From: Escherichia coli
GTDB lineage: Bacteria > Pseudomonadota > Gammaproteobacteria > Enterobacterales > Enterobacteriaceae
NCBI RefSeq assembly: GCF_024502345.1
Contig: NZ_JALDNN010000001.1
Length of the DNA: 64,000 bases
Reading direction: 5' to 3' (one strand)
Positions 48,934-50,734 of this stretch are shown in pieces. Each line of letters starts with the position of its first letter. The stretch's first letter is position 1. The position numbers and the translations under genes were made by a program. The notes under the pieces are model-generated. The model made no database searches, was not told the DNA's origin, and saw nothing but the letters and a program-made list of their open reading frames with translations.

Positions 48934-49485
48934 ATGACCGCGTATTGGCTGGCCCAGGGCGTGGGTGTCATCGCCTTTCTGATTGGTATCACAACATTTT
49001 TCAATCGTGACGAACGTCGCTTCAAAAAGCAGCTTTCGGTCTATAGCGCCGTTATTGGCGTACATTTTTTTCTTCTGGGCACCTATCCCGCTGGTGCCAG
49101 TGCCATCCTTAATGCCATTCGTACATTGATTACCTTACGCACGCGCAGCTTATGGGTAATGGCGATTTTTATTGTGCTGACTGGCGGAATTGGCCTCGCG
49201 AAGTTCCATCATCCTGTCGAACTATTGCCGGTTATCGGTACGATTGTCAGTACCTGGGCGCTGTTCCGCTGTAAAGGGCTCACCATGCGCTGCGTGATGT
49301 GGTTTTCAACGTGTTGCTGGGTGATTCACAACTTCTGGGCGGGGTCGATAGGCGGCACAATGATTGAGGGTAGTTTTCTGCTTATGAATGGCCTGAATAT
49401 CATTCGTTTCTGGCGGATGCAGAAAAGGGGAATTGATCCGTTTAAAGTAGAGAAAACCCCTCCCGCCGTAGACGAAAGGGGTTAA
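48934..49485 (+). CDS. ygjV: Inner-membrane protein YgjV
   Basis: ORF track 183 aa. Confidence 0.88.
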   Translation: MTAYWLAQGVGVIAFLIGITTFFNRDERRFKKQLSVYSAVIGVHFFLLGTYPAGASAILNAIRTLITLRTRSLWVMAIFIVLTGGIGLAKFHHPVELLPVIGTIVSTWALFRCKGLTMRCVMWFSTCCWVIHNFWAGSIGGTMIEGSFLLMNGLNIIRFWRMQKRGIDPFKVEKTPPAVDERG

Positions 49486-49489
49486 ACAA

Positions 49490-50734
49490 TTAATTACGCA
49501 GGGCGCTATTTGCCAGACGATCGTCTTCTGCCTGGCAAGCTGCCGCAGTGAATAGCACGTCAGTTGAAGAGTTCAGCGCGGTTTCGCAAGAGTCCTGCAA
49601 TACGCCGATGATAAAGCCGACGGCAACCACCTGCATGGCGATATCGTTCGAAATACCGAACATATTACAGGCCAGCGGGATCAGCAGCAGAGAACCCCCC
49701 GCCACGCCGGATGCGCCACAGGCACACAGAGAAGCCACTACGCTCAACAGCAGCGCTGTGGGCAGATCGACCGGAATACCCAGCGTATTAACCGCAGCCA
49801 GCGTCAACACGGTAATGGTGATTGCTGCGCCCGCCATATTGATGGTGGCACCCAGCGGAATAGAAACGGAATAGGTATCGCGATCCAGATTCAGCTTTTC
49901 ACACAGCGCCATATTCACCGGAATGTTAGCTGCAGAGCTGCGGGTGAAGAAGGCATACACGCCGCTTTCGCGCAGGCACAGCAGCACCAGCGGGAACGGG
50001 TTACGACGAATTTTCCACCACACCAGCAATGGGTTAACCACCAGCGCCACCAGTAACATACAGCCCACCAGCACGACCAGCAGTTGCGCGTAGCCCCACA
50101 GTGTGGAGAAACCGGTGGTTGCCAGGGTAGAAGAAACCAGCCCAAAAATACCGATCGGTGCGAAGCGAATGACCAGTTTCACCATAAAGGTGACGGCATT
50201 CGACATATCGTTGACCAGGTTTTTGGTGGTTTCGTTACCGTGACGCAGTGCGAAACCGAGGCCAATTGCCCACACCAGGATCCCGATGTAGTTACCTTTC
50301 AGCAGCGCGTCAATGGGGTTGGAAACCATGCTCATTACCAGTCCACGCATCACTTCGACAATGCCTGACGGCGGCGAAATATCACCCGCGCTACTGGACA
50401 GGTGCAGGGTAGAAGGGAAGGCAAAGCTGAAGACTACTGCGGCCAGAGCTGCAGAGAAGGTGCCCAGCAGATAGAGGAACAAAATAGGACGGATATTGGT
50501 TTTCTGCCCGTGCTGGTGGTTAGCAATAGATGCCATCACCAGCATCAACACCAGGATGGGGGCAACGGCTTTCAGTGCGCCGACGAACAAAGTACCTAAC
50601 AGACCAACAGCTTCCGCCGCGGGTTTTGAGATCCATGCCAGAAGAATCCCCAGAACAAGGCCGACCAGGATTTGTTTTACCAGGCTGCCATGAGCCAGAC
50701 GCCGGAATAGCCCCGGTGAACGTTGCGTAGTCAT
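49490..50734 (-). CDS. sstT: Serine/threonine:Na+ symporter SstT
   Basis: ORF track 414 aa, DAACS family. Confidence 0.93.

Follow-up and report, generated by a model that had tools for sequence, protein, structure and literature searches.

Overlapping bidirectional terminators between convergent genes were reportedly described by Ju et al. in 2019 using SEnd-seq. In the ynaJ-uspE case, a stem-loop at the convergent meeting point pauses the polymerases and sets the place of collision, and bidirectional terminators of this kind are reported to be Rho-independent (bioRxiv 10.1101/2022.10.23.513370). Convergent overlap has also been catalogued genome-wide: ExcludonFinder lists 165 convergent excludons in MG1655, where the pairs of its Table 1 have transcripts that overlap in 50% or more of 58 RNA-seq samples (NAR 2025, PMC12288877). 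Adams et al. (eLife 2021, PMC7815308) mapped Rho-dependent termination regions as bicyclomycin-sensitive drops in coverage, including drops on untranslated, C-rich antisense RNA, and a large share of their regions is labelled "antisense". With plasmid reporters carrying the phage lambda tR2 terminator, Li et al. (NAR 2016, PMC4824070) found that an intrinsic terminator a few bp past a stop codon is almost fully repressed and that full efficiency needs more than about 27–30 nt.

The convergent pair sstT-ygjV is one of the 165 excludons, and the overlap of its transcripts is already published; a literature search on sstT with antisense, Rho, and bicyclomycin returned no paper on the pair itself. 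New here is a conserved sstT-strand hairpin with a U-tract after it, located in the final ten ygjV codons. Our preferred explanation, held with moderate confidence, is an ordinary tight convergent junction with termination signals inside the neighboring gene instead of between the genes: sstT is terminated by a leaky, ribosome-masked hairpin with Rho as a back-up, and ygjV is without a terminator of its own. Coordinates are collected in Table 1 and refer to the window, the whole stretch of 64,000 nucleotides of Escherichia coli DNA that was analyzed.

Table 1. Features at the ygjV-sstT junction, in window positions.
Feature	Position	Strand	Description	Basis
ygjV CDS	48934-49485	+	183 aa inner-membrane protein	ORF list, RefSeq, Pfam
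sstT CDS	49490-50734	-	414 aa Na+:serine/threonine symporter, SDF family	ORF list, RefSeq, Pfam
Stop-to-stop spacer ACAA	49486-49489		4 bp	sequence
Conserved RNA hairpin AACCCCUUUCGUC-UAC-GGCGGGAGGGGUU	49455-49483	- (sstT-sense)	13 pairs, 3 G.U	
U-rich tract UUUUCUCUACUUU after the GC stem	49444-49456	-	+ strand codes K-V-E-K of YgjV	
Untranslated C-rich, G-poor sstT-sense RNA, antisense to ygjV	49250-49450	-	contains the published Rho peak	
ygjV read-through zone, antisense to the sstT 3' end	49486-49800	+	hairpin 49510-49538 without a U run after it	

The ORFs and the RefSeq annotation both give ygjV and sstT as neighbors on opposite strands, facing each other. The ygjV ORF ends in ...GAA AGG GGT TAA, with its TAA at 49483-49485 (+), and the sstT ORF in ...CTG CGT AAT TAA, with its TAA as the reverse complement of 49490-49492. 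YgjV matches PF10688 (Imp-YgjV; E 8e-61, residues 5-163) and SstT matches PF00375 (SDF; E 9e-65) in Pfam. The initial annotation had put the two stops about 4 bp apart, and the gap is exactly that. RefSeq has an identical gap in FDAARGOS_943 (a 100%-identical strain), in a K-12-like strain, and in MG1655 (sstT 3239944..3241188; ygjV 3241193..3241744), whose junction differs from that of the window by 2 SNPs and is otherwise the same; from the RefSeq record and this junction comparison, MG1655 positions (m) convert to window positions (w) as m = 3290678 - w. The gap is 3 or 4 bp in further E. coli lineages and in E. albertii, and 5419 of the 5426 complete E. coli genomes contain the ygjV-sstT region. 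Corrected gene ends that would restore a normal spacer were considered and rejected, as plain in-frame stops common to thousands of genomes fix both ends and the SstT C-terminus (...ALRN/G/S*) has a constant length across the Enterobacteriaceae.

Such a junction is ordinary for E. coli, and a convergent gap of 4 bp is nothing beyond chance. In three MG1655 regions picked blind (150 kb of annotation), 5 of the 26 convergent CDS pairs, about one in five, show gaps not exceeding 4 bp: malZ-acpH (4 bp), ydhK-sodC (0), purR-punR (-4), yiaC-bisC (-32), and ysaE-hokA (-24). The first three are also listed as excludons (PMC12288877) and, like sstT-ygjV, are convergent with a tiny or negative spacer. 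We see no essential difference between sstT-ygjV and the other MG1655 excludons.

The hairpin begins 6 nt past the sstT stop and lies entirely inside ygjV, in its final ten codons and the opening base of its stop. On the sstT strand its dG is -19.4 kcal/mol (z -3.1 against shuffles), or -18.9 in the comparison of the two strands; its GC core alone reaches dG -16.3 and is followed by UUUUCUCU, giving a T-tail score of 3.81. It thus has the form and position of an intrinsic terminator, a GC-rich stem-loop leading directly into a U-rich tract, immediately downstream of sstT and conserved in structure. A scan of both strands of the window (128 kb) for hairpins with dG of -15 or lower and a tail score of at least 3.5 returned only four such sites, this one included, or about one per 32 kb. 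A simple terminator scan had missed it because the stem was extended into the first two U, which left too few T in the tail window. An Rfam search covering positions 48700-51500 returned no match to a known RNA family at the junction.

A hairpin is found at the corresponding position in 35 loci of the Enterobacterales. In a MAFFT alignment the stems failed to line up between genera, and a covariance-model realignment was used; fitting to a structure model favors pairing, hence the slid and shuffled controls. In this alignment 86% of the cells are paired, against 44–67% in the slid controls, with compensatory changes in 8 of 11 pairs, and none of 500 shuffles was as good as the real alignment. 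In 31 of the 35 loci the sstT strand gives the more stable hairpin; the loci are related and hence not independent trials. Within Escherichia it is nearly invariant, with a single U.G to U-A change. C. youngae has a deletion of ygjV but keeps the hairpin; other species without ygjV have canonical terminators or REP elements after sstT.

This pattern bears on the simplest reading of the hairpin, namely that it arose incidentally from ygjV coding or as a palindrome by chance, and has no function at the RNA level. The hairpin does lie inside an ORF, and the Pro/Ser/Ala/Arg-rich codons of the YgjV tail are GC-rich. However, that tail is conserved in neither sequence nor length, yet pairing is kept by compensatory changes, and the hairpin persists where its host gene is gone; moreover, its G.U pairs make it specific to the sstT strand, and the rarity of comparable sites in the window also argues against coincidence. 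We consider this reading largely refuted and exceedingly improbable.

On the ygjV-sense strand the same bases form only 7+2 pairs (dG -10.7), and the tail after them is UAAACAAUUAAU, which is not a U-tract. A bidirectional intrinsic terminator was rejected on this asymmetry. A terminator scan of the ygjV read-through zone found none on the + strand; the strongest candidate within 130 nt reaches dG -11.5 with a tail score of 1.7, the fold of 49470-49560 (+) is no better than shuffles (z +0.8), and 49600-49800 shows a mild bias of C over G. Adams et al. called neither a 3' end nor a Rho region on the ygjV strand in this zone (PMC7815308).

The same asymmetry weighs on a further possibility, in which the hairpin would act like the overlapping bidirectional terminators, as a programmed site of collision or pausing, and stop both polymerases by head-on collision. 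The stem-loop is exactly at the convergent junction, as at ynaJ-uspE, and such elements are known to position collisions (bioRxiv 10.1101/2022.10.23.513370). At sstT-ygjV, however, the hairpin favors one strand, has its U-tract on the sstT side only, and is located inside a CDS. The collision mechanism also requires both genes to be well transcribed, whereas coverage here is low, and sstT-sense transcription crosses the junction in a Rho-dependent manner, in contrast to the Rho-independence reported for bidirectional terminators. We regard a collision site as very unlikely.

Evidence for transcription across the junction comes from the sstT strand, where Adams et al. located Rho-dependent termination at MG1655 3241399 (+), approximately window 49279; the site is antisense to ygjV and 211 nt beyond the sstT stop (PMC7815308, supplementary file 2). 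The peak has a Rho score of 3.23 (p 7.5e-7), with upstream/downstream coverage of 105/29 without bicyclomycin and 139/124 with it; these values come from 800-nt windows holding about 100 reads, which makes the position and the read-through fraction rough, and bicyclomycin also induces transcription from other sites. The RNA leading up to the peak resembles a rut region, as it follows the sstT stop, is untranslated, and is C-rich and G-poor (plus-strand GC skew +0.19 to +0.35; about 30% C and 15% G in the sstT-sense RNA, C being about twice G), and the published bicyclomycin sensitivity is that of a Rho-dependent terminator. In these respects it is like the antisense regions of Adams et al.; it differs in that a conserved terminator-like hairpin comes first at sstT, where Rho appears to be a back-up and not the sole signal.

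The overlapping 3' UTRs proposed in the initial annotation are borne out by this region together with the published excludon entry (PMC12288877). Its further proposal, that the junction leaves no room for separate terminators, stands in part: the 4-bp spacer is too small to hold one, and ygjV is without a recognizable terminator. As worded it fails, because terminators do not have to lie between genes; the probable one of sstT, the hairpin with its U-tract, is inside the end of ygjV, with Rho acting further downstream.

Alternatively, the hairpin may by itself be an efficient intrinsic terminator. Transcription of sstT would then almost always stop at the U-tract, 35-45 nt into ygjV, leaving a short overlap and no real part for Rho. 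The stem is strong and the U-tract good, the structure is conserved with covariation, and canonical terminators occupy the equivalent position in Yersinia, Edwardsiella, Aeromonas, and Pseudomonas. However, bicyclomycin lifts downstream coverage nearly to the upstream level, which leaves little room for efficient Rho-independent termination, the U-tract is without a called Term-seq 3' end, and the hairpin is at a distance from the stop at which repression in vivo is strong (PMC4824070). We consider efficient termination at the hairpin unlikely. Because the rise in the downstream/upstream ratio, although coarse at 800 nt, speaks against Rho-independence, we call the hairpin leaky and terminator-like, not a proven intrinsic terminator.

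As for the 3' ends, curated Term-seq lists from three growth conditions have none entered in MG1655 3240900-3241499, these being thresholded lists and expression being low, and the published 3'-end lists contain no curated Term-seq end on either strand of 3240300-3241499. Low expression may explain the missing end at the sstT hairpin. The SMRT-Cappable-seq supplements mention neither sstT nor ygjV.

In the preferred explanation of a leaky hairpin backed by Rho, a ribosome on the sstT stop would often prevent the hairpin from folding, given that only 6 nt separate the two, and intrinsic termination would consequently be leaky. The masking is extrapolated from a reporter system with a different terminator: as in the constructs of Li et al. 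(PMC4824070), a hairpin terminator follows the stop by a few nt, and their data predict strong repression at this spacing. Polymerases that read through would make untranslated, C-rich RNA antisense to ygjV, which Rho would end about 200 nt further on. Exonucleases would then probably trim the sstT transcript back to the hairpin, which would protect the resulting 3' end. Transcripts of ygjV, in turn, would run into antisense sstT until stopped by Rho or by an oncoming polymerase. Given sstT read-through to the Rho region and ygjV transcription into sstT, the two transcripts would overlap by tens to a few hundred nt, and any regulatory consequence would probably be small because expression is low.

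A larger consequence would follow if the pair were a working excludon, in which whichever gene is more active represses its neighbor, both by colliding polymerases and by RNase III cutting the sstT/ygjV RNA duplex. Consistent with this, the pair is among the MG1655 convergent excludons (PMC12288877), sstT-sense transcription runs antisense through some 200 nt or more of ygjV (PMC7815308), and the convergent arrangement is retained in many Enterobacterales. The regulators also apparently differ, with GcvB reported for sstT, and ygjV being a predicted member of the KdgR regulon and a PlaR target. Against it, accessible published data contain neither reciprocal expression nor RNase III products for sstT-ygjV, coverage amounts to only about 100 reads per 800 nt, and one transcriptome study has "sstT-ygjV" as a single Cra-activated entry and not as opposed genes. 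In addition, a spacer ranging from -4 to 117 bp and the repeated loss of ygjV beside sstT argue against a conserved coupled unit. We therefore think a working excludon quite unlikely; if it were one, serine/threonine uptake would be linked to a membrane protein associated with pectin and hexuronate.

A conditional version of this idea, in which the hairpin in the last ygjV codons is a dual-use switch, seems to us highly doubtful. Efficient sstT translation would mask the hairpin, and until Rho acts, read-through would silence ygjV through collisions or through duplex formation with the antisense RNA; with sstT translation off, sstT being a GcvB target, the hairpin or Rho would terminate early and free ygjV. 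In that case, the antisense pressure on ygjV would depend on how well the opposing gene is translated.

Returning to the tight junction with a leaky hairpin, comparison among the 35 Enterobacterales loci suggests how the narrow gap arose. Stop-to-stop gaps, computed from the conserved GIDPF motif of YgjV, range from -4 to 117 bp, plus one at 513 bp, and past this motif the YgjV tail differs in length and sequence between genera. The loci form a graded series. In Yersinia and Edwardsiella the counterpart of the hairpin is a canonical terminator (tail scores 3.9-5.2) in a spacer of 44-49 bp; the ygjV stop is then found within the U-tract, next within the hairpin loop or 5' arm, as in Citrobacter and Klebsiella, and finally beyond the hairpin, as in Escherichia. 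Based on this series, and on the canonical form of the hairpin in distant Enterobacterales, the 4-bp gap likely arose when the poorly conserved YgjV tail was extended through the sstT terminator after loss of a stop codon. The terminator of Shimwellia is two-sided, with tail scores of 3.44 and 4.76. Klebsiella, Pluralibacter, and Entomohabitans have an eroded U-tract (tail scores 1.2-1.6), and in these genera the hairpin may not terminate at all.

As a junction, sstT-ygjV matters little, being a single entry among the roughly 165 convergent overlaps catalogued for E. coli. It does show that the lack of intergenic room is not the lack of a terminator, and annotation pipelines and first-pass readers should check the 3' end of the neighboring gene. 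If ribosome masking with Rho as a back-up is correct, the locus would be a convenient natural case of proximity to a stop codon setting the leakiness of a terminator. For the Enterobacterales, it offers a clean evolutionary series in which the tail of an ORF grows over the terminator of its neighbor while the RNA structure is maintained.

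The stop codons of ygjV and sstT are four bases apart (see table), as the initial annotation held; the open reading frames and the identical gene ends in the RefSeq annotation of three genomes, MG1655 among them (sstT 3239944..3241188; ygjV 3241193..3241744), agree on this, and corrected gene ends cannot remove the tight gap. Pfam searches identify the products as Imp-YgjV (PF10688) and the sodium:dicarboxylate-symporter-family transporter SstT (PF00375). The ygjV-sstT stretch, 100% identical in the window and strain FDAARGOS_943, occurs in 5419 of 5426 complete E. coli genomes, and the gap is 3 or 4 bp in further lineages of E. 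coli and in E. albertii. The 2-kb region is 95–99% identical in 5307 of the 5419.

Features of the ygjV-sstT region and its flanks (window coordinates)
Feature	Position	Strand	Description
Hairpin between uxaA and ygjV	48864-48905		14 pairs, AAACGGCGTTTCATAATGTGAAGCGCCGTTT then GCTTTTCC; uxaA ends at 48851
ygjV ORF	48934-49485	+	183 aa, end GAA AGG GGT TAA
sstT hairpin	49455-49483	- (sstT-sense)	13 bp, AACCCCUUUCGUC-UAC-GGCGGGAGGGGUU; starts 6 nt past sstT stop codon
ygjV stop codon	49483-49485	+	
Spacer between stop codons			ACAA
sstT stop codon	49490-49492	-	
sstT ORF	49490-50734	-	414 aa, end CTG CGT AAT TAA
Stem-loop in sstT	49510-49538	- (sstT-sense)	UUGCCAGGCAGAAGACGAUCGUCUGGCAA; in final 50 nt of coding sequence
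Segment with an unannotated dispersed repeat as its core	50940-51345		core about 50990-51275 (~285 bp); between alx stop (51350) and sstT promoter region
alx leader hairpin	~52316-52370	-	dG -19.2, then UUUUUUAU; tail from 52338; just upstream of alx start codon (52315)

Such spacing is not unusual in E. coli. We examined the MG1655 annotation of three 50-kb regions, picked blind, together with the region containing sstT-ygjV. The blind regions hold 26 convergent CDS pairs, five of which are separated by at most 4 bp: malZ-acpH (4 bp), ydhK-sodC (0 bp), purR-punR (-4 bp), ysaE-hokA (-24 bp), and yiaC-bisC (-32 bp). With 704 convergent pairs in E. coli by a preprint's count, pairs this tight may, by rough extrapolation, number on the order of a hundred.

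The sstT-sense strand contains a hairpin (-19.4 kcal/mol; z = -3.1 against shuffles) wholly inside the last ten ygjV codons (K-T-P-P-A-V-D-E-R-G) and the first base of the ygjV stop, with UUUUCUCUACUUU directly after the GC core of its stem. It is one of four hairpin-plus-T-tail sites in 128 kb (the window, both strands) at hairpin dG <= -15 and a d'Aubenton-Carafa-type T-tail score >= 3.5, with about 0.002 expected in a given 60-nt zone; a simple terminator scan made no call here only because it carries the stem on into the first U residues. The initial claim that there is no room for separate terminators thus holds for the spacer but misleads as worded, the sstT signal lying inside ygjV. We rejected the hairpin as a bidirectional terminator, since it is asymmetric and the ygjV strand lacks a U-tract: with three G.U pairs in the sstT-sense stem, the ygjV-sense strand can form no more than a remnant of 7+2 pairs. 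The stem-loop within sstT is also stable and lies in a 121-nt segment with the terminal hairpin (z = -3.0); no U-tract follows it on either strand.

An SstT search of one genome per species returned 80 loci. In 34 of them, from Escherichia, Citrobacter, Klebsiella, Kosakonia, Cedecea, Yersinia, Serratia, Pectobacterium, Brenneria, and Edwardsiella, ygjV directly follows sstT in convergent orientation. Among these 34 and the window, the stop-to-stop gap is -4 bp in one Enterobacter, with stop codons overlapping as CTAA; 3–4 bp in four loci (Escherichia and one Serratia); 14–19 bp in 14 (e.g., Citrobacter, Klebsiella, Kosakonia); 26–49 bp in nine (e.g., Yersinia, Edwardsiella, Cedecea); 74–117 bp in six (e.g., Pectobacterium, Brenneria, Serratia); and 513 bp in one Pectobacterium. 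All of these loci carry a stable hairpin (about -15 to -24 kcal/mol) no more than a few tens of nucleotides past the sstT stop, and in 31 of the 35 a symmetric search found it more stable in the sstT sense than on the opposite strand, these loci being related rather than independent trials. When 22 Enterobacteriaceae sequences were realigned with a covariance model, a fit that itself favors pairing, 86% of cells were paired, with compensatory double changes in eight of 11 pairs; none of 500 shuffles matched this, and sliding the partner by 1–3 columns lowered pairing to 44–67%. In Citrobacter youngae ATCC 29220, ygjV is deleted and the hairpin retained. The hairpin is thus an element of sstT rather than of ygjV. 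Other ygjV-less species have a REP element or a canonical hairpin and T-run after sstT (Serratia, Providencia, Aeromonas, Pseudomonas).

Several lineages have lost the ygjV that lay between sstT and uxaA: some Citrobacter, Enterobacter, Pluralibacter, Trabulsiella, Kosakonia cowanii, and Serratia (sstT loci L007, L011, L012, L022, L025, L026, L033, L040, L049, and L052), where the gap now contains REP-type palindromes or a two-sided terminator shared with uxaA.

The position of the ygjV stop codon relative to the hairpin is graded across genera. In Yersinia and Edwardsiella (spacer 44–49 bp) the hairpin is a canonical terminator with T-tail scores of 3.9–5.2, and the stop codon falls within or just past the T-run; in Citrobacter, Klebsiella, and relatives (gap 14–19) either the loop or the 5' arm of the hairpin contains it; in Escherichia the loop has lost its stop codon and the ORF continues to a TAA at the hairpin's far foot. 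A conserved GIDPF motif closes the YgjV core, and the poorly conserved tail beyond it has 2 to 22 residues. The narrow gap thus came about incidentally, when a stop codon was lost in a variable tail that overlies a maintained RNA structure. The U-tract score is good in Escherichia (3.6–3.8) and eroded in several genera (1.2–1.6); thus the stem is better conserved than the whole terminator.

Overlap of the two 3' UTRs, also proposed initially, is supported and already known from published work. ExcludonFinder (NAR 2025, PMC12288877) includes sstT-ygjV, and likewise all five tight pairs from the blind regions, among its core set of 165 convergent MG1655 excludons, pairs with overlapping RNA-seq-defined transcripts in half or more of 58 samples. 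That study attributes overlap to a terminator within the neighbor's 3' UTR or to leaky termination, and reports TransTermHP "overlapping terminators" in 146 of the 165 pairs. In Adams et al. (eLife 2021, PMC7815308), a Rho termination region is called at MG1655 3241399 (+ strand; class "antisense ygjV"; Rho score 3.23, p 7.5e-7), with upstream/downstream coverage in 800-nt windows of 105/29 without and 139/124 with bicyclomycin. By the conversion m = 3290678 - w, this is about window 49279, 211 nt beyond the sstT stop. Neither strand has a 3' end from 3240300 to 3241499 in their curated Term-seq lists.

The sstT hairpin thus has the anatomy of an intrinsic terminator yet fails Rho-independence in the only data available, for which reason it is most likely a leaky, terminator-like hairpin with Rho back-up. 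In a reporter study (PMC4824070), the ribosome almost completely repressed a terminator placed a few bp past a stop codon, and full efficiency required more than about 27–30 nt. Intrinsic termination of sstT would be leaky because the hairpin starts so near the stop codon. Read-through RNA would lack translation and be rich in C: over 49250-49450 the plus strand has a GC skew of +0.19 to +0.35, making C about twice G in the sstT-sense RNA. Rho stops such RNA some 200 nt into the region antisense to ygjV (PMC7815308). The RNA would finally be trimmed back to the hairpin, leaving a protected 3' end. Such trimming is reportedly a general finding of Dar and Sorek in 2018. We infer the first, second, and last steps and take the third from published data; leakage, Rho back-up, and trimming together are the most likely mechanism for the sstT 3' end.

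Much of the sstT transcription apparently ends ahead of the gene or soon after its start, a possible reason for the low coverage at the 3' end of sstT. A very strong Term-seq 3' end (scores ~21,000–23,500) maps to the sstT 5' UTR at MG1655 3239923 (about window 50755, - strand), 21 nt upstream of the start codon, and a second Rho-dependent region lies within sstT at 3240275 (PMC7815308).

Farther upstream, the alx-sstT intergenic region is 615 bp versus 398 bp in MG1655, and its alx-adjacent part differs in sequence. The repeat here folds very stably, at -148.9 kcal/mol (z -5.4), and has only a weak Rfam match, with 26.6 bits and E 0.34 to TwoAYGGAY, whose gathering score is 43. Its core occurs at a median of three and up to five places per E. 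coli genome at 80–90% identity, one such place being the yohP-dusC interval; matches that cover 80% or more of the 406-bp query, at any position, are present in 1659 of 5426 genomes, and Klebsiella records also match. The strong terminator-like hairpin beyond it is presumably part of the known regulatory leader of alx.

Upstream of ygjV, the hairpin following uxaA is likely the uxaCA terminator; a putative promoter for ygjV (TTGTTA, 16-nt spacer, CATAAT) overlaps it. Within E. coli, ygjV is far more variable than sstT: against strain SCPM-O-B-8794 (locus L003; also matches H10–H12), YgjV is 88.5% and SstT 98.6% identical, and E. albertii YgjV is closer to the window's (93.4%), which suggests divergent ygjV alleles or recombination at ygjV.

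We found no terminator-like site for ygjV within 130 nt (best candidate dG -11.5, tail score 1.7), nor did the simple scan of the + strand past the gene. Because ygjV has no such terminator, its transcripts would run into antisense sstT and be halted by Rho or oncoming polymerases. ygjV is predicted to belong to the KdgR regulon and is targeted by PlaR, and sstT is a GcvB target. In structure and transcript overlap, ygjV-sstT is a convergent excludon, and antisense interference between the genes is possible; a conserved coupled switch is disfavored, because coverage is low, the length of the spacer varies freely in evolution, and ygjV loss has recurred.
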